Below are positions 166 to 49,268 of a DNA stretch of 64,000 nucleotides, one piece after another. Source of the stretch: Candidatus Bathyarchaeota archaeon (GTDB taxonomy: Archaea; Thermoproteota; Bathyarchaeia; Bathyarchaeales; Bathycorpusculaceae); NCBI GenBank assembly GCA_963832745.1, contig CAWHVC010000001.1, positions 672,001 to 736,000 of the forward strand, written 5' to 3'. Under the pieces are notes generated by a model, which had not been told where the DNA came from, did no database searches, and saw only the letters and a program-made list of their open reading frames with translations. The position numbers and the translations under genes are program-made. Position 1 is the stretch's first letter. Each line of letters begins with the position of its first letter.

Positions 166-1185
166 TTACTCTCGCACAACGCGTTCATTATTAGACGTGT
201 CTGCGCTACATGAATCTATGTCGTTAGGAGATGCCACAATTTCTGTGATATATAACCAAGAGTTGCGCCAACCTTTTGAGGATTTACTGAGGTACTCTTG
301 GGGGTATTGATAGATAACTCTACAATCAGGATGTTCTATTGCAAAAAAGCAACTACCCAATGACATGGGTTTTGTCCCGAGCGGTGCAATTGAGAAATTA
401 TATTTCTCGTTATATTCATAATATATGTCTTCTAAAACATCTCTTGTCTCGAAGGGGTCTATTGCTGGAGCATAAGTCAAATTCTTAAAAATTTCTTCAT
501 CAATCAATAATTCCTTGTTGTTCAAAATACTCATGTCTTTGAAAATCGGTTGATACGCTGGGAATCCGTTAATAGGGATTGTTAGATCAGGGTTAATTTC
601 ATTGTTAATAGCTACGGACCTACTTCCTTCAAAACCAATGAGTATAGCTAAGGCATCTTTTTTACGAGGAGTTCGCTTGCCTGAGTAACTGGGCAGGTCT
701 TTTGTATCTACTGTACCTTTGGTAAGGTTACTATATGTTTCAGGCTCTGTATAAATGAATCCAAGTCTATTTGTAGTAACGGTTGATAAGTGCTTAATTA
801 GTAGGAAAAAATAAGGTTTTACCATAACCGAAAAGTCAACAACAATGTTTTTGTGGTCAAATTTTTCATAATTAGCAACAAGATACCGTTTGAACTCTAA
901 TAAACCACTTATTTCATTGTACAGATCGACTTTAAGCTTTAAGTCCGAGGGCTTAATTTTAAACGATTCATCGAATTCGTCCTCACTTGGTGTTTTACCC
1001 GATGCTAAAACTTCGTTAAAATAGAACAAAATTTTGGTTGTAGGACGAATGCCACATTCTTCCAGAATTTTCAATCCCCGAATGTATCGCTCTTCACCGC
1101 TAATTGCGCCGATAAAAACATCGACCGTTTCGAAGTATGAACTTAACTTATTTGCAGAATCGTAAACACCATTTATATGAACCAT
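166..1185 (-). CDS. Hypothetical protein with two CARF-like Rossmann domains (partner of PRTase/STAND ATPase)
   Basis: 339 aa ORF starting 1 nt after the ATPase stop; repeated motifs ISGEER...IVVDFSVMVKP...FIYTEP and LIGFEGSR...IAPLGTKP...VIYQYP. Confidence 0.6.
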   Translation of the reverse strand: MVHINGVYDSANKLSSYFETVDVFIGAISGEERYIRGLKILEECGIRPTTKILFYFNEVLASGKTPSEDEFDESFKIKPSDLKLKVDLYNEISGLLEFKRYLVANYEKFDHKNIVVDFSVMVKPYFFLLIKHLSTVTTNRLGFIYTEPETYSNLTKGTVDTKDLPSYSGKRTPRKKDALAILIGFEGSRSVAINNEINPDLTIPINGFPAYQPIFKDMSILNNKELLIDEEIFKNLTYAPAIDPFETRDVLEDIYYEYNEKYNFSIAPLGTKPMSLGSCFFAIEHPDCRVIYQYPQEYLSKSSKGWRNSWLYITEIVASPNDIDSCSADTSNNERVVRE

Positions 1186-1186
1186 T

Positions 1187-3226
1187 TTATTCCCCTACGA
1201 AATCCATTATCGAGGCATTTAAGCTCAAGTTTATTCGACTTTCTCGGCTCAGTCTATTTCGTGTAACCTCTTTTTCCCTCTCGGTTCCAAAAATTAACGT
1301 TTCAAGATCTTCCTTGCTGAATTGACGAATCCTTCCTCTTAATCTATAAGAAATACTGAAATAAGGTGCCAAAATATGGTTTAGGACATAAACATTGATC
1401 AAGGGGTCGGTTGTTGCTTTTCCTTTCATTGCCTTTTTCGGTTGGAGAACTGACCATTGAACTGCACAATTCAGAACTTTTCTAGCCTTTTCTGATAACG
1501 CCTCATTGTCAACGCAGAAATATGTAACTTCAGGTTCAGAAAGAACAGGGTCATTTTGCCATGAGTAAAATATTGCACCAAGCTGTTTAACAAGCGATTT
1601 TATCTCGTTTCCCCATTCTGGTATCCGTTCTATCATATCCATGTATCTTTCAGCACGAATAGTTGCACCATCCGTTTGAGCTTCAAACGACATCTTTCCA
1701 TCTTTTATTAATGAGGTTCGATCCGAGAATAGCGCAATATTAAAACTCTGATAGCATAGTTCAAGAAAATTACGAATGATTCCAGATGATAGCATGCAAT
1801 AAACGTTGAAACCGGCGTATTGCTTTTGGGTGGGTTTATTTAAACTGACTAATTGAAAAAGCAATGATAACTTGTTTTTGTCGTAAAGATTGGCATACTT
1901 TTTAAATTCCAAAGATTCCCTTTTCCCGCTAATATAAGAGGCGAACATTTTAGCGATAACTTCTGGCTCATAATTCCTACGCAGCAATAACAGGTTTAGC
2001 ATTTCCAACAGTGGTTTTTTGTCTATTAGACTATTGAATATGGCGTCTAAGGATTCGTCAAGACGATGTTTTTTATTTAAAACTTTTCCAATTTCAACGA
2101 CATGTTTTGTTTTAAGATATTGATCTAATGGATATTGATCAATTTCATTTTGAGTTAACTTTTTGTTAAATACAATTATTGTCGCTTCATCCTCTACAGG
2201 AAACTCGCCAAGAATACTTTCAATATCAGTAAACCCTTTTTCCTGCAATTCTGGAATATGTTCCAAGCGTCGCTTAGCAATCATCTTCAACAAATTTCTA
2301 TACTCTTCATTATGGGACATTAGCACATCTTCAAATCTTATCCGCCTATAATCGGCGTCTTCCATCAAAAATTCGCCCACGTTCAAGGTATCACATGTTT
2401 TAAAACCCTTTAATCTCGTGCCTATTCTAAAGGTAACAAAATTTTTGGTATGCTTGAATAATGTATTAATAATTTTCTGCTGTTGGTACTGCAAATTTTC
2501 ATACTCATCTAGTAATAATATTATTCTTTTTCCATGAAATTCGGGAAGATTTTCTTGCAAAATTTCAGGAATACCAAAAATTAGCTTCCCTGAACGGATG
2601 GGGTGCCCAGAGAAAGTTGTTTCCGTAGAAAGTGCAGCACAGTTAATAAAATCAAAGATTCTTTCAAGCTCTCGTTGGAAAAAGTCAATAGCAAAATCTA
2701 ATGAAGGCTCTTCTTGGATGATAATAGATTCATCCACTAACTTTAGAATTTCAGTGAGTATTTTTATTTCTTTACTTTTCTCGATATCGATGCACTGATT
2801 TTCCTTAAGATTCTGCCACAACATAATCATTTTTTGCCCGATAGTCAATTCAAAATAATGTTTGAATAATGTCTCCCAACCTTCGGGACTTGTATGTCTT
2901 GAATCAAAACTTGCCAGACTAGGCCCATCAAATCTATGGTAAATACCAACGTAAAGGGTTTGATTTAGAAATCCTTTGCCATCACTATTTTCACTGACAT
3001 ACTCTTTAATTTTAATCTCATTTGACATCCATTTTAGAAGCATTGTTTTGCCTGTACCTCGACCGCCCTCAAAGATTACGGGAGTATCTCCGGTGAGGTC
3101 TATACCCATCGCTTGTACACCAAATACAATTTCAGGTTGTATCCAGTACTTCAAAACATCGTCATCACCCATCAAACTCGCGTTGAATGCAGCGAAGGGA
3201 TTTCTTAGGTTAAGTTCTTCTTTCAT
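1187..3226 (-). CDS. ORC/CDC6-like STAND-class P-loop ATPase
   Basis: 679 aa; N-terminal NPF, Walker A GGRGTGKT, Walker B LLLDEYEN, C-terminal SSGIIRNFLELC and LAPYFSISYRLR motifs. Confidence 0.8.
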   Translation of the reverse strand: MKEELNLRNPFAAFNASLMGDDDVLKYWIQPEIVFGVQAMGIDLTGDTPVIFEGGRGTGKTMLLKWMSNEIKIKEYVSENSDGKGFLNQTLYVGIYHRFDGPSLASFDSRHTSPEGWETLFKHYFELTIGQKMIMLWQNLKENQCIDIEKSKEIKILTEILKLVDESIIIQEEPSLDFAIDFFQRELERIFDFINCAALSTETTFSGHPIRSGKLIFGIPEILQENLPEFHGKRIILLLDEYENLQYQQQKIINTLFKHTKNFVTFRIGTRLKGFKTCDTLNVGEFLMEDADYRRIRFEDVLMSHNEEYRNLLKMIAKRRLEHIPELQEKGFTDIESILGEFPVEDEATIIVFNKKLTQNEIDQYPLDQYLKTKHVVEIGKVLNKKHRLDESLDAIFNSLIDKKPLLEMLNLLLLRRNYEPEVIAKMFASYISGKRESLEFKKYANLYDKNKLSLLFQLVSLNKPTQKQYAGFNVYCMLSSGIIRNFLELCYQSFNIALFSDRTSLIKDGKMSFEAQTDGATIRAERYMDMIERIPEWGNEIKSLVKQLGAIFYSWQNDPVLSEPEVTYFCVDNEALSEKARKVLNCAVQWSVLQPKKAMKGKATTDPLINVYVLNHILAPYFSISYRLRGRIRQFSKEDLETLIFGTEREKEVTRNRLSRESRINLSLNASIMDFVGE

Positions 3227-3240
3227 GGTTTATTCATCTT

Positions 3241-4140
3241 TCAGAATTTGTGCTTTCTTTTGAAAAGGGGATACCACTTCTCACCAGAGGTTTGTCTTTC
3301 ACCCCAAATCACTGGTAGGGTATTATCAGGTATGTTGTGGTGAAAACCAACAAGCGCTTGTGAGTCTTTATAGCCCAACGCATCTTCACCCTTAAAGATA
3401 TTGTTTCCATAATAACCACAAATTGATTTTGCAGAATTGCGCTCAGTAGGGTCCTGGAATACCCATGATGTGGAATCAAATACACGGTAGCTATTGTCCA
3501 GTACTTGAGGGCAAATGACGTCAAGCCCCGTATGGTTTTTAACTTTTTCAATTGCTTTCTGTAGTGCTATGAGCGCAATAAAATGAAATTTCGTCTGAGG
3601 ACATCGATTTTTAATTGCTAGCACTTTTTTGTCCCAAAAGTCGCATGTAGTTTTACCCGTTCCCAAAAAATCGTCGATAAAAACGATATTTAGAGTGGCT
3701 AATTCGTTTGGTGAATACTCGTTTGTCAGAAACGCGTTTGGTTCTACGAATTGCATGTATGACAGTCTGTTTTCTTGTCTAAAATTATACGTTAGCATAG
3801 CGCCACTTTCGCTTAAACGACCTATGCATGAAAACCGACAACTACTCGCAAATTGAGTTATTGCGCGCTCTGTATTTAACGAGGCGTATTGAGAAGGATT
3901 ATCGATAATCCTTTGGCGCTTAAGGAGAGAAAAAGCCGCTCTGCAAAGGTAGTTTATTTCCTTTTCACCATAGTAAATGAAATTTCTGAGTAATTGTATG
4001 GCAGTCTGTTTTTCAATCGCTGACTCACAATGTTGACCTTTGAAATTTTCCATCCATGCGTCAAATATAGCATTGGTCAACCTCTTTTCCCATAGGTAAT
4101 TGTTTTTATCAACGATTTCCATAAGCAATTTTTCGGGCAT
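3241..4140 (-). CDS. Phosphoribosyltransferase-like protein (conflict-system PRTase)
   Basis: PRPP-binding loop IVFIDDFLGTGKT, SESG motif, C-terminal GY...FHHNIPDNTLPVIW...WYPLFKR; likely ATG at 4140, 1 nt after the methylase stop. Confidence 0.8.
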   Translation of the reverse strand: MPEKLLMEIVDKNNYLWEKRLTNAIFDAWMENFKGQHCESAIEKQTAIQLLRNFIYYGEKEINYLCRAAFSLLKRQRIIDNPSQYASLNTERAITQFASSCRFSCIGRLSESGAMLTYNFRQENRLSYMQFVEPNAFLTNEYSPNELATLNIVFIDDFLGTGKTTCDFWDKKVLAIKNRCPQTKFHFIALIALQKAIEKVKNHTGLDVICPQVLDNSYRVFDSTSWVFQDPTERNSAKSICGYYGNNIFKGEDALGYKDSQALVGFHHNIPDNTLPVIWGERQTSGEKWYPLFKRKHKF

Positions 4141-4141
4141 T

Positions 4142-5235
4142 TCAAGATTCCCCCAAAGCAGTCTGCAATTGCATTCCAATCGCTTTTGCCATAATCGGCG
4201 GGACAGCGTTCGCAATTTGTTGTTGTTGTGCTCCCAAGTTTCCGTAGAAAATGTAATCGTCTGGAAAAGATTGTAACCTTGCGGCTTCTCTGACGGACAA
4301 CCCTCTGTGCTCTTCTGGATGAATTAGCATGTTCTTACGGAAATTACTTATTACTATCGAAGGCTCGTCCCATTTTAGTCTGTAGTAAATCCATCCATGA
4401 CAATTTTCAAGATTCTTGTAATTACTCATCATGGATTTTGGGAGACTTCGCCAATTGCCTCCTTGCGGTATCAACTTATACCTTGTTATGGCTAGTTCTC
4501 TATTTTTTGAAACTTTATTATTTGTGACAGAAGATACAGAATTTTTTTGTCTCATTAATTTTTGGTAATCTGAAAGATTAGTAGTCTTTTTATAAGCGAG
4601 AACTTCAGTCGGGTTCCCATTCTCCAATGACGGCAAATCGTCTATTGCCTGCCTAACTGTCACTAAGGGTTTCCCTAATGAATCAATTAGAGAAAAATAG
4701 CCACCCTTTGCGCCTACGAATATCACGCGCTTTCTTCTTTGAGGAACGCCAAAATTCTCACTATTAATCAACCAGTAGTTTGTCTGATAACCAAGCTTTT
4801 TACTAATTTCTAAAATATCTTGTAATACCGATCCATTTGCTAAGGATTTATCCCCTCAACATTCTCAAAAATGAACATTTTTGGAGATAAGTCAGCGACG
4901 ATTCGAAAATAATGTTGATACAAGTGATTTAGAGGATTCTGGAGGTTTCTACTTTTTCTGTTGGATGTAGAAAAACCCCTACAAGGAGGACCGCCAGCAA
5001 CTAAAGAAATTTCGGAATGTCGTAAACCGCCAATCTTGAGAATTTCTGTTGAATCCACTTTTGTTATGTCGGATTCTATTACGTGCATTTTTTCATGATT
5101 CATTCCAAGCGTTGTAGCCGCTTCATGATCAATCTCAACGCCAACTCTTAGGTCAAAACCTGCTTCTGACAAGCCATGTGATAACCCCCCAGCACCAGCA
5201 AATAAATCTACAGCTATAGGTTGCGAGTTAGCCAT
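4142..5235 (-). CDS. dcm: C5 DNA cytosine methyltransferase, split by one frameshift near 4848
   Basis: Motif I DLFAGAGG, IV GGPPC, VI ENV in 4840-5235; VIII PQRRKR, IX SVREAARLQSFPD, X QIANAVPP in 4142-4771; adding one A to an AAA run gives ENVEGIKSLANG... Confidence 0.9.
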
Positions 5236-5324
5236 GGCATGATCCCGGATGAAACATCAATATACACGACAATCCTTTTATCGTTTTTTATGAGCATAAT
5301 AATCAAGATCATTAGGGTATTCTA

Positions 5325-5729
5325 ATGACCGACAAATTTAGTAAAGAGAAAAGAAGTCAAATAATGTCAAAAATAAGATCGAAAAATACAGACATTGAAA
5401 TTACCTTAAGAAATGGATTGGAAAAAAACTGCATAAAATTCGAATACCAGCCAAAGCTTTTCGGTAAACCGGATTTTCTTATACCCCCTAAAATAATTGT
5501 TTTTTGCGATAGCTCATTTTGGCATGGAAGAAACTGGCAGGAACTAGACAAAAAATTACCAAAAGGTTATTGGCATGAGCATATAAAACGTAACAAAGAA
5601 AGGGATGTATTAGTCAACAAGCAGCTTACTGATCAGAACTTCGTCGTTCTTAGGTTTTGGGATTTTCAGATTAAAAAGGAAACGGAGTCTTGCATTAACA
5701 AAATTAAAGACACCCTTAGCGCCCTCTAA
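5325..5729 (+). CDS. vsr: Very short patch repair endonuclease
   Basis: MTDKFSKEKRSQIMSKIRSKNT N-terminus, GKPDF, FCDSSFWHG, NKERD, LRFW motifs; divergent from dcm. Confidence 0.93.
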   Translation: MTDKFSKEKRSQIMSKIRSKNTDIEITLRNGLEKNCIKFEYQPKLFGKPDFLIPPKIIVFCDSSFWHGRNWQELDKKLPKGYWHEHIKRNKERDVLVNKQLTDQNFVVLRFWDFQIKKETESCINKIKDTLSAL

Positions 5730-5966
5730 AACTTGATGCAAGAATGTAAATGACCATTAAAGGGGGTTTAAAATCACCAGTTTATTGCGCTACTCATTTT
5801 AGTACATGTGGGTACGTTGAAATTCGATAGGCAAAAAAGCTGTATAGGGAAAATCTTCCAACCATAAAAAACATTTTTTTGAAGTCTGTTAGGAATCAGA
5901 TAGCGGGATTTTTCTAACCAGTTTAAATATTGGAAGCAAGCAAGTAAATTAAAAGAGGGGCTGGGT

Positions 5967-7148
5967 ATGGGATTTGATGAATACCAATTTTTACGATATT
6001 TTATTCCAGGCAGTCTTGCTGTTATTTATATTGCCTTTTTCTTGGCCCCTTTTATAGGTGATGGGGTAATCAATAATTTTAAAGCAAGTCCAGAGGGCTT
6101 ATTAGGAATAGTGGGGGCTGCTTTTGGAGCAAGTTTAGCTATTGGATATGTTATTTACACGTTCTATGATACGTGCAGTTATAATAAAGCTGCTATGGAT
6201 TCGACGAAGCGACGAATACTACACTATCTTGAAAAACAAAAACCAGATTGGAAAAAACTTTCAGAATTTGAAAAGAAGGCGACATTGGATATGCTTTATG
6301 ATGCTTTTGATGATAGTTCAGTAAGTAATAGGGTTGCTTCAAAAGCACGCGGTATGTGGTCTCATTTCAATGCAAGAAAAGTTTGTGCAATATATGTTCC
6401 ATCTTTTTCAATTGTGTTTTCTGTTATCATAATTTTGTTTGCACATCTTATTAAACCAAATATTTTTGACTTTTCTAACTTGTATCGTTTCCTTTTACTA
6501 ATTCCTATCTGTTTGATAGTAGGTGCTGTCTCATATGTTTTGTATTATGGTGCGAATCGTCCCTATAGCGAGGCTACCACATTAGAGTATTTGTATATGC
6601 GAAGAGTTCTATCGAAATATGATAATGAATTCAACACAATGGTTGTTAATCTTAAGAAAGAAACCGATAGTAAGAATAATAACCAAGTAGAGTCTAATGA
6701 CAAAAATATGAGCTTAACTAAAAATGAAGAAATCGCAACGTATAGAATCGATTGGGCTCATCAAAGACAATTAGTAATTGTTGCTTCTTTGCTGGGTCTT
6801 GGCTTAGCGGTAGTTGAGCTTTTGTCTAATGGGTATAATGTTTTTGATAATATTGTCCTTAGAATGCTTTACTATACATTGTCAGCGCTCTTTTCAATTG
6901 GGGTTTATTCATTTTTTAAATTTGAAAAAGAAATTTTAAATTGGCAGTTTAAGCTTAGCGATGAGTGGAAAATAAAATTCGAAGATACTACATTCAAATT
7001 TTTCTTTTCAAAGGAAGGCTCTGATGTTAATTTGAAAAAAATAACAGTATTTTTGCTCTGTATAATTTGTTTATTTATTCTTATTGCATTACCCTACGCT
7101 GGGTATTTTTGTAAAAATCATTTGAATAATTTTTTATGGTTCACCTAA
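5967..7148 (+). CDS. Polytopic membrane protein of unknown function
   Basis: 393 aa ORF with about 7 hydrophobic segments in two blocks. Confidence 0.7.
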   Translation: MGFDEYQFLRYFIPGSLAVIYIAFFLAPFIGDGVINNFKASPEGLLGIVGAAFGASLAIGYVIYTFYDTCSYNKAAMDSTKRRILHYLEKQKPDWKKLSEFEKKATLDMLYDAFDDSSVSNRVASKARGMWSHFNARKVCAIYVPSFSIVFSVIIILFAHLIKPNIFDFSNLYRFLLLIPICLIVGAVSYVLYYGANRPYSEATTLEYLYMRRVLSKYDNEFNTMVVNLKKETDSKNNNQVESNDKNMSLTKNEEIATYRIDWAHQRQLVIVASLLGLGLAVVELLSNGYNVFDNIVLRMLYYTLSALFSIGVYSFFKFEKEILNWQFKLSDEWKIKFEDTTFKFFFSKEGSDVNLKKITVFLLCIICLFILIALPYAGYFCKNHLNNFLWFT

Positions 7149-7149
7149 A

Positions 7150-7404
7150 CTAATTTTTCTCTGCTTGCGTTTCTCTTTCTTCTTTATCCCATTTTGCTTG
7201 GTCTTTTTCTGCTTGCTCAAAATCATCCTCAGTCAAATGCCTATGTGCATGAACCGAACAATTATAGGAATTAAGTTCTATACCATTGCATCTGAAAACT
7301 TCAATCAACTGCTTGTAAGTATAATGATGAACATGAAGTAGTAGGGTAAACGACTTGATTAAGCAGTCTGGGCTGGAACATATTTTGCAATTCTTCTGTT
7401 TCCT
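7150..7404 (-). pseudogene. Small CxxC...HxxxH zinc-binding/HTH-like protein with lost start codon
   Basis: Open frame RKQKNCKICSSPDCLIKS...SVHAHRHLTEDD...; GGAGGTGA RBS at ~7411-7418 is followed by TAG where a start is expected. Confidence 0.45.
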
Positions 7405-7476
7405 CTAGAATCACCTCCATTTTAGAAAAACACTTGAGGGAGCGGCGCTGGTAGAGAACCGTCTGTTTCCAACCGG

Positions 7477-8830
7477 TCATTTGAGAGGTTGGGGGACAGA
7501 CTGGGGCTCTACCAAAGCTGCTCCTAATCCTAACTGTTCTATTGGAATGATTATGTCTGAAGATGTTTCAGTGATGGGTTGGTTTTCTTTGTTTTTAGAC
7601 TCAGCTTTTACTTCATCGTATGTTTTGCGCAGGGTTATAATTTGGGGTTTACTTCCTGCGATTGTTATCATTTCGCAGTCTCTTGCGGTCGTCAGGATAT
7701 CGGTCAACTGTTTTGATGTCAAATGCATTCTTGTGATTAGCACTTGACGTTCTATTTGTTTCTCTGAACATCCATCTAATATTCTGCTGAGCTTTGCTAA
7801 GTTTATGCTAAGCCAGTCTGAAGTTTGCATCTTAGCATACTTAGCACTTAGCATACTAAGCAGATTATTCATGAATTCCCTTGATTTGATTGCAGATTCT
7901 TTTGATATTTCGATTGTATTCTTATCTCTAAGTTTGCTAAGTTGCAAAGTATCCGCTTCATAAAGTGCAGCTATTTTGACTAAATAGGTATCAGCTCGAC
8001 CATTGATTGCTCCAATAAATTCCTTCTCTTCTTCTGCACTATCTCTAAACGCTTTATGATGTTTGATTATTTCTTGATTGATTATTTCTTCAGCGTCTTT
8101 GCTTAGGTTAAATCTGAATGTGTTACTTCCACTTCTTGGATGAAAAATGTCCCAGATACCTTCAGATTGTTCTTTGCCAATTCACCTTTTGCTTTAACTT
8201 CGGTTCTTTGTTGACCATTCAACAGTTGTATTTTTTCACATTCGTCCCGAAGATTATTATAAATCTTGCAAGGAACCCAGAAGAAACTGGTCTTGCTTAA
8301 CATACTTAGCAAAGTTAACTTTCGTTGTTGCCCACAGCATGTTAAAGCAAGGTTCTGTTACCGTGAATTTTCCGCTTCTAAGGTCTTTAGTTCTGCCTTG
8401 ACCATTGTATAGTGCCATAACGGTGTCATCGATTCCACTGAGGTAGCTTCTTGGATTATCAATTTGTTTCAGTACTGGCGCGCATTCATCCCAAATATTG
8501 AGACCATTACTATTTTGTGACAACTCCGCAAAGAAGGCTTCTTTAGTAAATTCGTCTGCATACACGTTAGCTTCTTCCGGAAGCATTGCTCTTGCTTCAT
8601 CGAGTAATGTGCTTTTTCGGCTGTATGTACTATAACTCTACAAGCATAGTCCACAAATTTGGTAACAGATTAGCGAAGTTGGTGTCAATAAATACTCTAC
8701 CAACAGCTAAGCTTACAAGATTGAGAGCAACTGCTTCTTGAAAGAGCGCATAGACATCACTTTTAGTAGTGATATAGTCTTTGAACGCGTCAATAAAACT
8801 GTGACTTGGATTTTCAGTTGTTGTCGTCAA
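7477..8830 (-). pseudogene. DUF3987/YfjI-like (MCM-related) ATPase/helicase of integrated element, multiply frameshifted
   Basis: Fragments join into PNLWTMLV..STYSRKST (Walker A-like), NIWDEC (Walker B-like), GFLARF (Arg finger), GRADTYLVKIAAL, and a C-terminal wHTH-like region. Confidence 0.65.
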
Positions 8831-16784: not shown

Positions 16785-18662
16785 ATGAGGCTTTTTGCAG
16801 GCAGCTCCCAACAGTTCGTCCAGGACACTATACAAAATCAAATCGCTGAAAAACTAAAGCTCGCATTCTTCAATTACTTCCGTTATTACCCTTCACCCAG
16901 CGAAATTAACTCTTGGCGAAACTCGCTAAGGGCAATCTCACTTGTCTTTACCCATGCCCGCTTAACAGACCAAGGAGTCATCCTCGAGTACCAGCTGCCC
17001 ATGACTTCTAAACGACTTGACATCTTAATTTGCGGAAAAGATGCCAATACCCGGGACAACGCAGTGATTATTGAGCTTAAGCAGTGGGATCGCTGTGAAG
17101 ATGCACTGGGCAAAAACGAAGTAATCACTTGGGTGGGTGGCAGAAAAGAACTGCTCCATCCTTCAGTTCAGGTGCAACAATACCAGCGCTACTTAGAAGA
17201 TACGCACACCGCATTCTATGAAGGACCAAATCCTGTAATCTTAAACGCTTGCGCCTATCTGCATAACTACAATGTTTATTCAGATGATGTTCTGTTTTCC
17301 AATAAATTTATTGACGCGCTTTCGAATTCACCTCTTTTCACCGCTGATGATGTCAACAAGTTGTCAGGGTACTTAACCACAAAGTTGGATATGGGCGCTG
17401 GCATGGATGTGCTAAAACGCATTGAAGAAAGTAAGTATCGTCCCAGCAAGAAACTCATGGATCATGTAGGCAACGTGATTAAGGGCATCCCTGAGTACAT
17501 TCTGTTAGATGAGCAACAAATTGTCTATGATAGCGTGTTCTCTTGTGCCAGAGCAGGTTATCATGATAAGCAAAAAACTGTGTTGATAATCAAGGGTGGA
17601 CCGGGAACAGGCAAATCCGTTATAGCAATCAACCTTATGGCTGATCTGCTGTTGCAAGGCTACAACACTCAGTACGCAACGGGGTCAAGAGCATTTACGG
17701 AAACGCTTAAGCGGATAGTTAAATCGCGAGGCGCTGCTCAATTCAAGTATTTTAATAGCTACACCGAAGCTCAGGATAACGAAATCGACGTGTTAATTGC
17801 CGACGAAGCCCACCGCCTTAGGCAAACCAGCTTTAACAGGTTCACACCCAAAGAAAAACGCACAAACGTTCCCCAAATTGAGGAATTGCTAAAAGCCTCA
17901 AAGGTCGCTGCATTCTTCATCGACGATGACCAAATCGTGCGGCCAGGCGAAATAGGCTCCGTCCAATACATCAAAGAATACGCCAATCGAAATAACTGCA
18001 AAGTTTTTGAGTACGAGCTTGAAGCCCAATTCCGCTGTAACGGTTCAGACGCGTTTGTCAACTGGATAAACAACACGTTAGGCATCAAACGGACAGCTAA
18101 TGTCATCTGGGACCAACATGAAGAATTCGACCTTAAAATAATGCAAAGCCCCCAAGAACTTGAAGATGCAATAAGAGAAAAAGTCCAAGCCGGCTACACA
18201 GGAAGGCTAATGGCTGGCTTCTGCTGGCCATGGTCAGACCCAGACAAAGAAGGAAACCTTCAAAACGACGTAAAAATCGGCGACTACCAACGCCCATGGA
18301 ACGCCAAACCAGAATCAAAAATACTCGCCGCTGGAATCCCAAAATCAAACCTCTGGGCATACGACCCAAACGGCATAGACCAAATAGGCTGCGTATACAC
18401 CGCCCAAGGATTCGAATTCGACTACGCAGGCATAATAATTGGCAAAGACCTCACCTACAACTTTGACAAGCAACAATGGACAGGAAACCCAGCCTACTCA
18501 GCAGATGGCGTTGTAAGACGAGCAAAAGAAAGATTCACAGACTTAGTCAAGAACACGTACAGGGTCTTATTGTCAAGAGGCATGAAAGGATGCTACATCT
18601 ACTTCATGGACAAAGACACAGAACGATTCTTCAAATCAAGAATAGAAAAGGGATTAAAATGA
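16785..18662 (+). CDS. DUF2075 (Schlafen group 3-like) SF1 helicase with N-terminal PD-(D/E)xK-like nuclease
   Basis: LEY...RLD...IIELKQW, HPSVQ, Walker A GGPGTGKS, DEAHR, QFRC, GCVYTAQGFEFDY, NTYRVLLSRG. Confidence 0.88.
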   Translation: MRLFAGSSQQFVQDTIQNQIAEKLKLAFFNYFRYYPSPSEINSWRNSLRAISLVFTHARLTDQGVILEYQLPMTSKRLDILICGKDANTRDNAVIIELKQWDRCEDALGKNEVITWVGGRKELLHPSVQVQQYQRYLEDTHTAFYEGPNPVILNACAYLHNYNVYSDDVLFSNKFIDALSNSPLFTADDVNKLSGYLTTKLDMGAGMDVLKRIEESKYRPSKKLMDHVGNVIKGIPEYILLDEQQIVYDSVFSCARAGYHDKQKTVLIIKGGPGTGKSVIAINLMADLLLQGYNTQYATGSRAFTETLKRIVKSRGAAQFKYFNSYTEAQDNEIDVLIADEAHRLRQTSFNRFTPKEKRTNVPQIEELLKASKVAAFFIDDDQIVRPGEIGSVQYIKEYANRNNCKVFEYELEAQFRCNGSDAFVNWINNTLGIKRTANVIWDQHEEFDLKIMQSPQELEDAIREKVQAGYTGRLMAGFCWPWSDPDKEGNLQNDVKIGDYQRPWNAKPESKILAAGIPKSNLWAYDPNGIDQIGCVYTAQGFEFDYAGIIIGKDLTYNFDKQQWTGNPAYSADGVVRRAKERFTDLVKNTYRVLLSRGMKGCYIYFMDKDTERFFKSRIEKGLK

Positions 18663-19069
18663 AGCACTTAGAAGTCGTAGGTGGAATTCTGATTTTCCAA
18701 GGCAAAATCTTGTGTATGCAGCGTAATATTGGAAAATATGACTATCTGAATTTCAAATACGAGTTTCCTGGGGGAAAAGTCGAAGCAGGAGAGAATCAAC
18801 CCCAAGCACTAATGCGTGAATTAAAAGAGGAGATGGATCTCGAGATCCATGTTTCTGAAACTGATTATTTCGGTGAAGTAAGTTACCAATATCCTGATTT
18901 TGAAATCACCATGTACTGTTATCTTTGCCATCTTACCACGAATCATTTCAAACAAAAGGAGCATGCAAACTATAAATGGCTGAATCAAAATGAACTGCAC
19001 ACCTTAGATTGGGCTCCTGCAGATTATCCAATAGTAAAAAAATTAGAAAAGGTGGCCTCTCTTAAATAA
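18659..19069 (+). CDS. Nudix (MutT-like) (d)NTP pyrophosphohydrolase
   Basis: Nudix box EFPGGKVEAGENQPQALMRELKEEM and LDWAPAD; ATGA overlap with the DUF2075 stop. Confidence 0.92.
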   Translation: MKHLEVVGGILIFQGKILCMQRNIGKYDYLNFKYEFPGGKVEAGENQPQALMRELKEEMDLEIHVSETDYFGEVSYQYPDFEITMYCYLCHLTTNHFKQKEHANYKWLNQNELHTLDWAPADYPIVKKLEKVASLK

Positions 19070-19136
19070 CATAGATGTAATTCCCGAACTGCAAAAGAGC
19101 CTAATTACGGGATGCATTGATGGTTCTTCTAAATCA

Positions 19137-21963
19137 TTGGAAGAATACCAACCAAAATTACTTCTTAATAGTCCAGGATCAAAAGTCCTTTCAACCATTA
19201 TAGCAGAATTGAAAAAATGTGATGAATTCTTCTTTTCAGTTGCATTTGTTACAAATGGCGGGGTCGCCGTTCTTATTGAAACACTCAAAGAATTAGAAGC
19301 GAAGGGAGTTCGTGGGAAAATAATTGTATCTGAATACCAATATTTTACAGAACCGCGAGCTTTAGAACGCCTAATTGTTTTTAAGAACCTCGACATTCGA
19401 ATTATTAGCGAAGAACAGCATCTTCATTCAAAAGGTTATGTTTTACGAAATAACAAAACATTCTCTCTTATTATTGGAAGCAGTAATTTAACACAAGAAG
19501 CTCTTTGCAAGAATCAAGAATGGAACATGAAAATTATAACGTCGTCTCATGGATCGTTAATAGTAGATACTTTTGAAGAATTTAATCGACTCTACAAATG
19601 CTCAACTCCAGTAACTCTAGAATGGCTCGATACCTACAAAGAACTATACAAAAAACGACACGAAATCGAAAGGAGAATCTTGAATAAATTTGAAGAGGAT
19701 TCAACTGTACCTGTTAGACCAGTTGTTCCGAACAAAATGCAGAGTTCAGCATTAAAATCTTTGAAGTTACTCAGGTCGGAAGGTCATAAAAAGGCGCTTC
19801 TAATCTCTGCAACCGGAACAGGTAAAACTTACCTTTCGACTTTTGATGCAAAGATAGTTAATCCAAAGAGATTTCTGTTTGTTGTTCATCGTGAAAATAT
19901 TGCCAGAACTGTAATGAAATCTTTCAAGAGAATTTTTGGTGCAAGTAAAAATATGGGTATTCTGATTGGATCAGAGAAGAACTTTTCAGCCGAATATATT
20001 TTTTCAACAATTCAAACGCTTTCAAAACCTGAGATCCTTAAAAAATTCTCCTCTGATTATTTCGACTACATAGTAATTGATGAAGTCCATCGGTCAGGAG
20101 CAAAATCTTACAGAACAATCCTCGATTACTTCAATCCAAACTTCTTGCTCGGAATGACAGCAACCCCCGAAAGAACAGACGGTTATGATATTTTTAAAGC
20201 ATTTAATTACAAAATCGCTTACGAAATTAGACTTCATATAGCCTTAGAAGAGGATATGCTCTCACCTTTCCATTATTATGGAGTTACAGATATTTCGATA
20301 GATGGGAAATTATTGGACGATTATACAGAATTTAGTAAGCTTGTCTCAAATGAACGCGTTGAATCTATTATTAAAAATTCAAAGTTTTACGGATGCGACC
20401 GGGGAAGAATCAAAGGATTAATTTTCTGTAGTAGGGTTGAAGAAGCAAGGGACCTTTCAGAAAAACTCAATCTCAAAGGTTATCACACAATTGCACTATC
20501 AGGTGAAAACGATGAAAAAGAAAGAGAAGCGTGTATTGAGCGCCTTGAATCCAATAAACGAGAGGATTACCTCGACTATATTTTGACAGTTGATATTTTC
20601 AATGAAGGTGTTGACATACCATCAGTCAATCAGATCATTATGCTCCGCCCGACTCAGTCAGCCATAGTATTTGTTCAGCAACTTGGACGAGGATTACGAA
20701 AGGCTGAAGATAAGGACTTTTTGACAGTTATCGACTTCATAGGGAATTATTCCAACAACTATCTCGTACCAATCGCTCTCTATGGTGACAGTTCCTATAA
20801 CAAAGATACACTTCGGAAACTAATTTCAACGGGAAGTAACTTAATCCCGGGTGTATCTACAGTTAATTTTGACATAGTATCAAAACAAAGGATCTACGAA
20901 GCAATCGATACAGCTAAAGTTAACAGTTACAAAGAATTAAAAGACGATTATACGCTTTTAAAATACAAATTGGGACGTATTCCCTCCATGATGGATTTCG
21001 TTGAACATGGAAGCAGAGATCCGATGACGTACGTTAAAAAAGACGGTTCGTTATACGCATTTATCGATAAGCAAGAGAACATCGGCGTATTATCTCCCTT
21101 ACAAATTGGAAAGCTTAGTTTCTTTGCAAAAGAAGTATGTGATGGCAAACGATTAGAGGAAGCCCTTCTATTGAAATTGCTTATAGAAAAAGGTCAGATT
21201 TCCATAGATGAATTTACAAAAATATTAGACGAAGAACATCAGATAAAATCCCATTCAATCAACTCTGCTATTGATTACATAAATGGTAAATTCCACCAAC
21301 CGAGAGATTATGAAAAATACGGTTCAACAAAGTATATTGAATTATCTGATAAGGGAATTATCTCGAAAATAAAGGAATTTAACGAATTATTATCAATTCC
21401 AACATTCTATTTGAATTTGATGGATTCAATCAATTTTGCAATTTATAGATTCACGCATTCATTTGATTCAAAACGCTATTTCAACGGATTTTCTCTATAT
21501 AGCAAAATACTCCCGAAAAGATGTTTGCCGAATTCTAAACTGGAAGAAAGATGAACATTCCACGATCTATGGATACCAAATCAAACACAATACCTGCCCG
21601 ATTTTCGTGACTTACTCAAAAAGTGAAGATATTAATGCGAGTACAAAATATCAAGATCATTTCCTAAGTAACAGAAATTTCCATTGGATGACTAGGAATA
21701 ATAGAACAGTTGACTCCCAAGATGTTCTAAAAATTCAAAAGTATAAGGAAACAGGATTAAGAATTTGCTTATTTTTGAAAAAATCCGATGCAGAAAGCGA
21801 TGATTTCTATTATATTGGTGATTTAACCCCTTACGAATATAATTCACAAACAATCAAAGATGATTCAGGTGCTAACCGCCCGATAGTCAACATCAATTTT
21901 GAAATAACCACCCCTGTTGCTGAAAATATTTACAACTATTTGATAGCAGAAGAAAGAAATTAA
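19137..21963 (+). CDS. PLD nuclease - SF2 helicase - DUF3427 protein (SauUSI-like type IV restriction enzyme); frameshift at ~21505
   Basis: LHSKGY..IIGSSNLT..NQEWN (PLD), SATGTGKT, DEVH, MTATPERTD, QQLGRGLR; removing one A from AAAA 21504-21507 fuses YSRKDV...YQDHF...FHWMTR (DUF3427); frame is open upstream to 19047. Confidence 0.85.
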
Positions 21964-47650: not shown

Positions 47651-49268
47651 TTATTTCATGATGGCTTTTAGATCTTCGTCTGCAGTGGCGATTGGCATGA
47701 TGTTGAATTTCTCAACCAGAACTTTGAGGATGTTTGGCGTGATAAATGCGGGTAGGCTTGGTCCGATGCGTATGTCTTTTATGCCCAAGTACAGCAGCGA
47801 TAGGAGTATGGCTACCGCTTTTTGTTCATACCATGACAACACAATCGAAAGTGGCAGGTCATTAACGCCAACATGGAATGCGTCAGCTAAAGCTTGAGCG
47901 ATTTTTACTGCAGAGTACGCGTCATTGCATTGACCGATATCGAGCAGTCGCGGAATTTCGTCGATTGTGCCAAGGTCTTTGTCGAAGAATCGGAATTTGC
48001 CGCATGCCAATGTGAGGATTACTGTGTTTTTTGGTGCCTTTTCTACGAGTTCCGTGTAGTAGCCTCTGGAGCCTTTTGCGCCGTCACATCCACCGACGAG
48101 CAGGAACTTTTTGATGTGTCCATCTTTTACGCTTTGAATCACCTTGTCAGCGACGCTTAAGACTGCATTTCTGCCGAATCCGACCATGACGGTTTTGCCT
48201 TCGGTGTCAGCTGGGAAACCAGGCATTTCAAGAGCTTTCTGAATGACTTGCGAGAAGTCACTGTTTTCGATGTGTTTGACCCCTGGCCAACCTACTGGTC
48301 CAGCGGTGAAGATATTGCTGCTGTAGCTGTCCATGGGTTTTTGGATGCAGTTTGTAGTCATCACTATTGGGCCTGGGAACTGAGCGAATTCTTTTTGTTG
48401 GTTAAACCATGCTGTGCCGTAGTGTCCGTAGAAGTGTGGGTAAGCTTTGAGTTTGGGGTAACCGTGGGTTGGAAGCATTTCGCCGTGAGTGTAAACGTAG
48501 ATTCCTTTGCCTTCTGATTGCTTGAGAATTTCTTCGAGGTCGGCAAGGTCGTGTCCTGAAACAAGAATCGCTTTGCCCTTCTTTGCGCCCAGCGGCACTT
48601 TTGTTGGGATTGGATGACCATAAGTTTCTGTGTTGCCGGCGTCAAGTAGTTCCATGGCGCGAATGTTGACTTCTCCGCACTTGAAAACTAAGCCTACAAA
48701 ATCGTTAACGCCAAGGGACTTGTCTAAGGGGGCTGCTAAGCCTTGATAAATAAAGTTGAAGACTGCTTCATCCTTCTTGCCCAAAATGTAAGCGTGATAC
48801 GCGTAAGCGGCGACTCCTTTTAATCCGTAGGTTAGAAGCCACTGTAGTGAATGCAGGTCAGGGTCAATGGTTGTGTTAGCGTTTATTCCAACTTTTTTGC
48901 CCTGAGCAATTAAGCCCTCCATTGAAGCGTTCAACTGGCTGAAATGCTGTTTCTATTTTGAGTTGCTTTTCAACTTGTCCCTGAAGTTCCTCAGACTCTC
49001 TTAGATACTTAACTATCGAGTCGGGATCAAAATTTACGTTAGTCAGCGTTACAAATAGAGCTTCGGCGATGAAAACGTCGATTTTTTCGTCTTTGAAACC
49101 AGATTCTTTTGCTTTATTCATAAGCTGGCTTAATTCGCGTAGCTTGTAAACCAAAAGGTCTTGGAGTGTGGCTACCTGCGGGTTTTTGCCGCACACACCC
49201 ATAATGGTGCAGCCTTGTCCTTTGGCTGTTTGTTCACATTGGTAACAGAACATTTGATTTTGGCTCAT
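47651..49268 (-). CDS. hcp: Hydroxylamine reductase (hybrid cluster protein); frameshift near 48935
   Basis: MFCYQCEQT..GC..GVCGK; SGHDL, YTHGEMLP, TTNC, GGCDG, DIGQCND, SWYEQKA. Confidence 0.93.

Follow-up and report, generated by a model that had tools for sequence, protein, structure and literature searches.

A 64,000-nt stretch of a Candidatus Bathyarchaeota genome (contig CAWHVC010000001.1, positions 672,001 to 736,000; hereafter the window) carries near its left end an operon in which a gene for a C5 cytosine DNA methylase (dcm) is followed by genes for a phosphoribosyltransferase (PRTase)-like protein, an ORC/Cdc6-like AAA+ ATPase and a tandem-CARF protein, with the repair gene vsr divergent beside it. 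Comparison of related loci shows that the operon is one copy of a widespread, modular cassette. Its constant core consists of the ATPase, the CARF protein and a DNA methylase, and the PRTase-CE protein or a TIR domain serves as an exchangeable effector; the window holds the form with Dcm and Vsr. Parts of the cassette had been recognized computationally before, the PRTase and ATPase through Pfam models and the CARF clade through PADLOC. We tentatively interpret the cassette as a methylation-gated defence that resembles restriction-modification (R-M), in the manner of BREX and DISARM, and that depletes nucleotides without employing a nuclease. We give this interpretation slightly less than even confidence.

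A co-oriented triad with an exchangeable effector

Related loci were gathered through an alignment of ATPase homologues, and their neighbouring genes were found with profiles built iteratively from the proteins of the window. The loci examined, 80 from genomes and 80 from metagenomes, are a minimum of 160 for a cassette that is common and spread over many phyla of bacteria and archaea. All three genes are present and co-oriented in the order PRTase, ATPase, CARF in 143 of the 160, with most of the others cut by contig ends. The median gaps from gene to gene are -4, -17 and -4 nt, those within the triad being -4 and -17 nt. This arrangement is far beyond chance. A previous interpretation of the window from its letters alone, the sequence-only reading, had proposed an uncharacterized archaeal system. 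Our literature search likewise found no characterization by experiment. Most of the loci are bacterial, however, and the cassette is not specifically archaeal; cultured carriers include Paenibacillus qinlingensis (L008), Petrimonas sulfuriphila (L032) and Halopseudomonas aestusnigri (L072).

The PRTase matches PF24390 (E 2.9e-57) as well as PRTase_III-A, from the PADLOC models for the retron type III-A effector (E 1.3e-44). Residues D156-D157 are invariant among 55 sequences, which share a PRPP (phosphoribosyl pyrophosphate)-loop consensus of the VxFVDDFxGSGxQ type. Profile matches in the PDB are weak and confined to uracil PRTases, the best having an E value of 0.016. Assignment to the NCBIfam DS32_1 family of PRTase-like anti-phage proteins was rejected, as only a 29-residue tail was matched (E 0.0037). 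A table in PMC13712802 gives the PRTase family as the effector of retron type III-A. According to another report (bioRxiv 10.64898/2026.01.15.699771), 'CE' denotes a conflict effector, and a related effector, Calcineurin-CE, depletes nucleotides.

An alternative output is found on the ATPase itself, as approximately 24 of 116 homologues possess an N-terminal TIR domain (PF13676). At two such loci (L174:6878-11471 and L175:1255-5039), the gene for the TIR-fused ATPase is followed by a tandem-CARF gene and a PF01555-type methylase gene, with no PRTase. Retention of the CARF protein and methylase by a variant that lacks the PRTase indicates that the latter is a swappable output. The same variant leaves no support for the earlier suggestion that the PRTase makes a signal read by the CARF protein.

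The ATPase matches PF24389 (E 1e-101) and no PADLOC model. Its Walker A residues (G54-G57-G59-K60-T61) and Walker B pair (D240-E241) are invariant among 43 homologues. An AlphaFold 2 (AF2) model with a predicted local distance difference test (pLDDT) value of 88.4 has a helical C-terminal half that ends in a winged-helix-like unit. Foldseek placed RdrA (8hr8) at the top (E 2.9e-4, template-modelling (TM) score ~0.2), together with Orc1/Cdc6 (2qby_B) and BrxC (9zdx_C). Structural alignment with VIA retrieved the archaeal Walker ATPase PAB2304 (2qen; Z 12.3, 330 aligned, residues 10-625), Cdc6/Orc proteins (Z 10.8-11.4) and BrxC (Z 9.7-9.8). Dark/Apaf-type proteins (Z 9.7) were among many AAA+ matches, and Pfam detected no repeat family.

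The third protein of the triad, described as CARF-like in the sequence-only reading, proved to be a tandem CARF protein by fold. Pfam provided no match, and the PADLOC model PDLC01922 ('CARF6--CARF_CARF_CARF') was matched with an E value of 1.7e-60. The AF2 model (pLDDT 91.2) contains two CARF-like domains only, with residues 326-339 disordered. In a VIA-align wide search, Can1 (6sce_A) was the best match over residues 21-299 (Z 14.3, root-mean-square deviation 3.6, 231 aligned), the CARF domains of Csm6, Can2, Cam1, Card1 and Csa3 aligned with residues 175-296 (Z 9.7-13.1), and SAVED domains aligned with residues 18-297 (Z ~8.3-8.7). This likeness was seen by the wide search; Foldseek alone returned only low-TM tandem-Rossmann matches, USP and KaiC among them. 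Near-invariant residues of the family include R33, D117, Y145, Y151, G184, G270, T271 and K272.

Structure prediction supports binding of the ATPase to the CARF protein. A complex with ATPase residues 25-679 was predicted with scores of 0.63, 0.63 and 0.50, the best of 3 controls scoring 0.00; contact agreement between runs was at least 83% and partner pLDDT at least 81. The predicted interface involves ATPase residues 98-110 and 180-201 and CARF residues 160-174. Of 80 solved complexes, 58 pass the mark applied to the complex score, as do 2 of 110 mismatched pairs; these counts hold only roughly here, since the complex was predicted with our own alignments. The ATPase, CARF protein and PRTase of the cassette have no solved homologues, and their profiles revealed no sequence-level relative in the PDB below E 0.001, so the score is not explicable as memory of a known complex.

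DNA methylases of three classes beside the triad

A DNA methylase gene lies within 300 nt of the triad in 135 of the 160 loci and within 1.5 kb in 4 more, for a total of 139. Recurrent linkage to a methylase had been anticipated by the sequence-only reading, and the link proved broader than first supposed once clustering of all locus neighbours revealed non-C5 methylases in other clades. Three classes are represented: the PF02384 N6-adenine type (108 loci), the PF01555 N4/N6 beta type (16) and C5 Dcm (15). With two effectors and three methylase classes, the cassette is modular. The PF02384 enzyme, of ~363 aa, is encoded directly 3' of the CARF gene, the PF01555 type directly before the PRTase gene, and the methylase gene usually overlaps its neighbour by ~4 nt. 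Motif IV is intact in the full-length non-C5 methylases: 108/108 (NPPF/Y), 13/13 and 6/6 (SPPF/Y). The SPP[FY] form is typical of N4-cytosine enzymes. Among the 21 loci where a methylase was not detected, 17 have less than 1.1 kb of sequence on one side because of a contig end.

The methylase classes follow the phylogeny of the ATPase. In a tree of 148 rows, Dcm-linked rows are confined to one 30-row clade (support 99) with two subclades, and the window falls in these Dcm subclades. Dcm occurs in 0 of 114 rows on the other side of the tree, and 0 of 500 label shuffles were equally clustered. The methylase has been displaced non-homologously along the tree, with some methylase present in every clade. 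Maintenance of the methylation function through swaps of unrelated enzyme classes strongly indicates that DNA methylation is part of the mechanism.

These data bear directly on whether the methylase belongs to the system at all. The triad could instead be an autonomous STAND-like sensor-effector, akin to AVAST or RADAR, which senses a phage protein or nucleic acid and has the methylase as a mere neighbour, such as an R-M remnant or selfish stabilizer. The ATPase fold is close to RdrA and the STAND/ORC clade, orphan methylases are common, Dcm is found in several positions and orientations, and the window combines a broken dcm with an intact triad, all as an autonomous triad would have it. We nevertheless consider this explanation very unlikely given the frequency of the methylase, its overlap with the adjoining gene in most cases, its presence in every clade and its retention in the TIR variant. 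A function that is kept while non-homologous enzymes replace one another is usually a required one, which argues against an incidental methylase.

The 15 Dcm-linked loci also provide a clue regarding the substrate of the methylase. Five possess Vsr and 9 a HhH-GPD/4Fe-4S glycosylase, the sole exception being a contig of 2970 nt; the best solved match of the glycosylase is the G-T mismatch enzyme 1kea (E 2.5e-41). Vsr and Mig-type glycosylases are the two known routes for repair of deaminated 5-methylcytosine (5mC). The occurrence of a T:G repair gene in 14 of 15 Dcm-linked loci and in the window implies that Dcm methylates genomic DNA. Relative to the triad, dcm can be upstream and overlapping the PRTase gene, divergent, downstream and convergent, or downstream and co-oriented. 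The upstream, co-oriented form of the window, here with Vsr, is the commonest, and in relatives Dcm is translationally coupled to the PRTase gene. At another locus, a row of dcm, a HAD phosphatase gene, a dCTP-deaminase-like gene and a Mig-type glycosylase gene lies downstream of the cassette on the opposite strand (L087:6193-9599), and may constitute a second nucleotide-directed module.

A tentative mechanism and its alternatives

According to the methylation-gated interpretation, the methylase would mark the host genome, a step with some indirect support. The ATPase would act as a DNA-binding nucleotide switch held in the predicted complex with the effector-less tandem-CARF protein. Unmarked invading DNA would trip this switch, probably being read through the methylase itself, and a nucleotide ligand on the CARF protein may serve as a second input or brake. 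Activation would then release PRTase-CE, or the fused TIR domain in the sister variant. By analogy with the family context, the effector might attack the glycosidic bond of nucleotides or of metabolites of the nicotinamide adenine dinucleotide (NAD) type and thereby starve replication. The methylase in the subclade of the window is C5 Dcm, with Vsr alongside for the repair of deaminated 5mC.

A more elaborate version specifies both the label and the target. A methylase of any chemistry, forming N6-methyladenine (m6A), N4-methylcytosine (m4C) or 5-methylcytosine (m5C), would label self; the ATPase-CARF complex would read the unlabelled state, integrate a nucleotide ligand that is not made by a cyclase, and unleash a PRTase or TIR effector that collapses a pyrimidine or NAD-type pool. 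ThyX and dUTPase, which are encoded near some cassettes, would safeguard the host against uracil in its own DNA. We regard this fuller scheme as possible but rather unlikely. Were the methylation-gated interpretation true, the logic of R-M (mark self, punish the unmarked) would lead to metabolic suicide or arrest in place of DNA cleavage, and a CARF domain would be working without a cyclic-oligonucleotide synthase. On the fuller scheme, the cassette would be the first immune pathway to depend on CARF outside cyclic-oligonucleotide signalling, as well as the first system in which nucleotide depletion is gated epigenetically.

Several known systems share elements of this scheme. They include computationally predicted PRTase-CE/ORC-CDC6-like conflict systems, as the PRTase and ATPase of the window match both Pfam models (PF24390 and PF24389). 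The existence of these models bears out the earlier statement that such a gene pair had been predicted; the conflict systems were reportedly described by Nicastro et al. 2023. Retron type III-A employs the same PRTase-CE family, but the locus, which is taken up by the four genes, has no reverse transcriptase gene, and the sensor comprises ATPase, CARF protein and methylase. Among the open reading frames (ORFs) of the locus, Pfam gave no RVT match; non-coding RNA was not searched for.

BREX, BREX-related systems and DISARM resemble the cassette in combining a methylase with an ORC/Cdc6-type AAA+ ATPase in the absence of a classical restriction endonuclease (REase). DISARM is likewise found in forms with an N6 and with a C5 methylase, and the two halves of the window's Dcm match the DrmMII and DruM models of PADLOC. 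BrxC is among the structural neighbours of the ATPase at the level of the fold only. In contrast to these systems, the cassette operon possesses no PglZ, BrxA/B/L or helicase, its output is a nucleotide-directed PRTase or TIR domain, and its core includes a tandem-CARF protein. The pairing of a methylase with an ORC/Cdc6-type ATPase has precedents in BREX and BREX-related systems (PMC12839542).

Receptors of type III CRISPR and CBASS systems share the presence of two CARF domains per chain, as in Can1, and the SAVED likeness. They differ in that the CARF protein of the cassette has no nuclease or other effector domain, and neither the locus nor the genome was found to contain a Cas10 or CD-NTase cyclase. 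RADAR likewise uses an ORC/STAND-like ATPase to control a nucleotide-modifying enzyme, the likeness to RdrA being weak, but the cassette lacks the RdrB deaminase and RADAR lacks a methylase and CARF protein. Type II R-M systems of the Dcm-Vsr and Dcm-Mig kinds share the C5 methylase and T:G repair enzyme, whereas no REase was detected with the cassette. Overall, none of the known systems compared provided a match, in agreement with the sequence-only reading. Our literature search found no description or experimental test of the four-gene cassette, and the cassette or its methylase link may already stand in earlier computational surveys.

Several observations weigh against methylation gating. 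The winged-helix region at the C-terminus of the ATPase shows high conservation among loci whose methylases differ, and hence cannot itself read the target site of the methylase; in addition, three unrelated methylase families must each couple to one sensor complex. The model does not account for what the CARF protein binds; searches of the 99%-complete genome for Csm1, Cmr2 and SMODS cyclase (TIGR02578, TIGR02577 and PF18144) found none, and control genomes were matched. At four loci (L075, L086, L106 and L118), no methylase was detected although the sequence extends for at least 2.2 kb to either side. In the window, dcm is split while the three triad genes stay open over 4 kb, and if unmethylated self DNA were the trigger, an intact triad beside a broken dcm should be toxic. 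The problem would be avoided if the split were a sequencing error, if the operon were silent or if another methylase provided cover. Finally, the ThyX and dUTPase neighbours detailed below are not predicted by a methylation-gated model.

Some of these difficulties would vanish if the methylase supplied the precursor of a signal and not a label of self. In such an alarm derived from the methylome, degradation of the chromosome by a phage would free methylated deoxynucleotides; the CARF protein or a different component of the complex would sense them, and the PRTase or TIR effector would be turned on. A precedent is PUA-Cal-HAD, which, according to its report (bioRxiv 10.64898/2026.01.15.699771), is activated by Dam-derived m6-dAMP from phage-induced chromosome degradation and then depletes deoxynucleoside triphosphates. 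It shares with the cassette a nucleotide-directed 'conflict effector' and a trigger dependent on host DNA methylation, and differs in its PUA sensor, its other effectors, the lack of an ATPase and its use of the host's Dam instead of a methylase of its own. Any methylase chemistry would serve such an alarm, which fits the three classes, and loss of the methylase would be harmless, in keeping with the window, where the triad is intact next to a frameshifted dcm, and with the four loci in which a methylase is missing; no cyclase to feed the CARF protein was found in the genome. However, the CARF proteins of m5C- and m6A-coupled clades are identical in their conserved polar and aromatic residues (R33, D117, Y145, E147, Y151, E186, R189, N223, T271, K272 and Y292). 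Hence, the methylated base itself is probably not what the CARF protein binds, which speaks against direct base reading by this protein, and Pfam detected no modified-base reader of the PUA, EVE or SRA type at the locus. The identity of these residues across methylase clades favours reading of a self label, and we judge the alarm improbable.

The neighbours of the cassette suggest which nucleotides might be affected. Within 3 kb, 35 of the 160 loci encode ThyX (15), trimeric dUTPase (14) or dimeric dUTPase_2 (6), and 29 of these genes lie within 300 nt (examples are L090:9915-10832, L116:304-1236, L026:10877-11332 and L064:5289-5978). These are unrelated enzymes of one route, which leads from deoxyuridine triphosphate (dUTP) through its monophosphate (dUMP) to thymidine monophosphate (dTMP). 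Their recurrence points to uracil and thymine deoxynucleotides as the pool touched, and thus to a specific and measurable nucleotide pool. At L086, L096 and L106, a ThyX gene immediately precedes the PRTase gene and a methylase went undetected, L096 being truncated where its contig ends. In the genome of the window, tblastn found no ThyX, and Mig-like genes are present on other contigs only. A viral origin of the dcm/ThyX context was rejected as the main explanation, as only 4 loci were confirmed in IMG/VR (2.9 million contigs).

Such neighbours raise the question of whether the cassette is a defence system or regulates and polices the pyrimidine deoxynucleotide pool or base repair, for example in uracil/thymine homeostasis, perhaps on behalf of a mobile element. 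In addition to the ThyX and dUTPase genes, this role would accommodate the nearby Mig-type glycosylase or Vsr, a Y-family polymerase gene (L002), the DCD-like and HAD genes of L087, and the fact that uracil PRTases are the weak best PDB profile matches of the PRTase. Against such a role, PRTase-CE is an effector family of retrons, and conflict systems are typified by features such as the TIR swap, the patchy horizontal distribution, the defence-island neighbours and the CARF fold. We consider a regulatory function very unlikely.

The operon of the window and its genomic island

The positions of the features are compiled in Table 1. As described in the sequence-only reading, the coordinates place four co-oriented genes on the minus strand, separated by 1 nt (4141), 14 nt (3227-3240) and 1 nt (1186), beside a divergent vsr that starts on the opposite strand 89 nt from the start of dcm. 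Vsr matches PF03852 (E 4.1e-17) and scores 88.9 bits against TIGR00632, under the cut-off of that model (97.85).

Table 1. Features of the cassette in the window
Feature	Position	Strand	Basis
Tandem-CARF protein, 'CARF6' type, 339 aa, no fused effector domain	166..1185	-	PADLOC + fold match
ORC/Cdc6-like AAA+ ATPase, 679 aa, C-terminal winged-helix-like region	1187..3226	-	PF24389
PRTase-CE phosphoribosyltransferase-like protein, 299 aa counted from ATG, putative effector	3241..4140	-	PF24390
dcm, C5 cytosine DNA methylase, split by one frameshift	4142..5235	-	PF00145 halves
Divergent intergenic region dcm/vsr, 89 nt, presumed promoters	5236..5324	.	coordinates
vsr, T:G mismatch endonuclease, repairs 5mC deamination	5325..5729	+	PF03852

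The absence of a visible REase beside the methylase, noted from the sequence at the outset, was confirmed to the extent that Pfam, PADLOC and NCBIfam detected no REase family in ORFs 166 to 7947; a novel REase among the small unannotated ORFs is possible. A cognate REase to the left of the window, which would have counted against the initial proposal, was ruled out. The 1.1 kb between the window and a tRNA-Gln gene contain integrase-like fragments only, and housekeeping genes lie further left.

The methylase gene, initially taken for one open gene, adjoins the PRTase gene with the expected orientation and 1-nt gap, but consists of two ORFs, 5235..4840 (131 aa, PF00145 positions 4-114) and 4771..4142 (209 aa, positions 142-323). 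A single frameshift in a short A-run near 4849-4855 accounts for the split: tblastn with intact Dcm proteins from L002, L082 and L083 produced two high-scoring segment pairs, each in its own frame, which meet at 4849-4855. Over their full length, both halves share 53-61% identity with the intact Dcm of related loci. Elsewhere in the window, the hybrid-cluster (prismane) protein gene hcp (47651-49268) is likewise split, into two overlapping ORFs. As hcp is a housekeeping gene, some frameshifts of the assembly, that of dcm included, may be sequencing or assembly errors. A second, distant C5-methylase-like gene is present in the genome (G000:C2:101334-102893), directly before a Mig-type HhH-GPD glycosylase gene whose matches fall in two frames.

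The operon belongs to the cargo of an old island that was acquired horizontally, as indicated by its setting and its patchy presence in the genus and family. The genome consists of 5 contigs (3.02 Mb, 41-42% GC, 99% complete), and a TFB gene just left of the window is in keeping with an archaeal host. The first 12 kb of the window have a GC content of ~36%. The tRNA-Gln(ttg) gene 1.1 kb left of the window is followed by tyrosine-recombinase-like gene fragments in several frames (L001 13897-14860, ~1.1 to 0.15 kb left of the window start; PF00589 only at E 0.004), which are probably the degraded integrase of the cassette-bearing island. To locate a possible second attachment site, the window was scanned for the 26 nt at the 3' end of tRNA-Gln, allowing up to 3 mismatches, and no match was found. 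The ATPase is present in 1 of 4 genomes of the genus, that of the window, and the other 117 sampled genomes of the family contain no full-length ATPase and one weak partial match. One homologue, P0002, has 81% identity.

A low-GC island beside tRNA-Gln, a degraded integrase and a frameshifted dcm together suggest that this copy may be partly decayed. A stronger proposition is that the copy is a decaying relic that no longer works, whatever the function of the family. The broken dcm, the reduction of the adjoining integrase-like gene to fragments in several frames (PF00589 E 0.004), the split DUF3427 helicase gene of the island and a GC content of ~36% versus ~41-42% in the contigs of the genome would all be expected of such a relic. 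Set against them are triad genes that are uninterrupted over 4 kb and retain every family-invariant residue, as well as the split hcp in the same window, which leaves assembly indel errors possible. On balance, we regard complete loss of function as a serious but minority possibility.

The surroundings of related loci include further defence genes, namely a type I R subunit, Mrr and AbiE. Some loci from Bacteroidota, few in number, have AbiEi-like (DUF6088) and AbiEii toxin-antitoxin genes immediately before the cassette (L019:4924-5580, L021:4275-5267 and relatives), which is consistent with a defence-island setting.

To the right of the cassette, the window encodes a membrane protein and small ORFs, followed by further genes of defence type: one for an SLFN-type helicase, accompanied by a NUDIX gene, and one for a PLD-helicase-DUF3427 protein, which is split. 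The 393-aa multi-pass membrane protein (5967-7148) adjoins vsr and has weak matches to NCBIfam BA5345_fam (E 3e-5) and PADLOC CARF_TM (E 0.004); it is not recurrent beside the cassette in related loci. At 16785-21963, the gene for an SLFN-group-3 helicase (PF09848, E 1e-89) overlaps the NUDIX gene and precedes the PLD-ResIII-helicase-DUF3427 gene, in which the DUF3427 part is split off as a second ORF.

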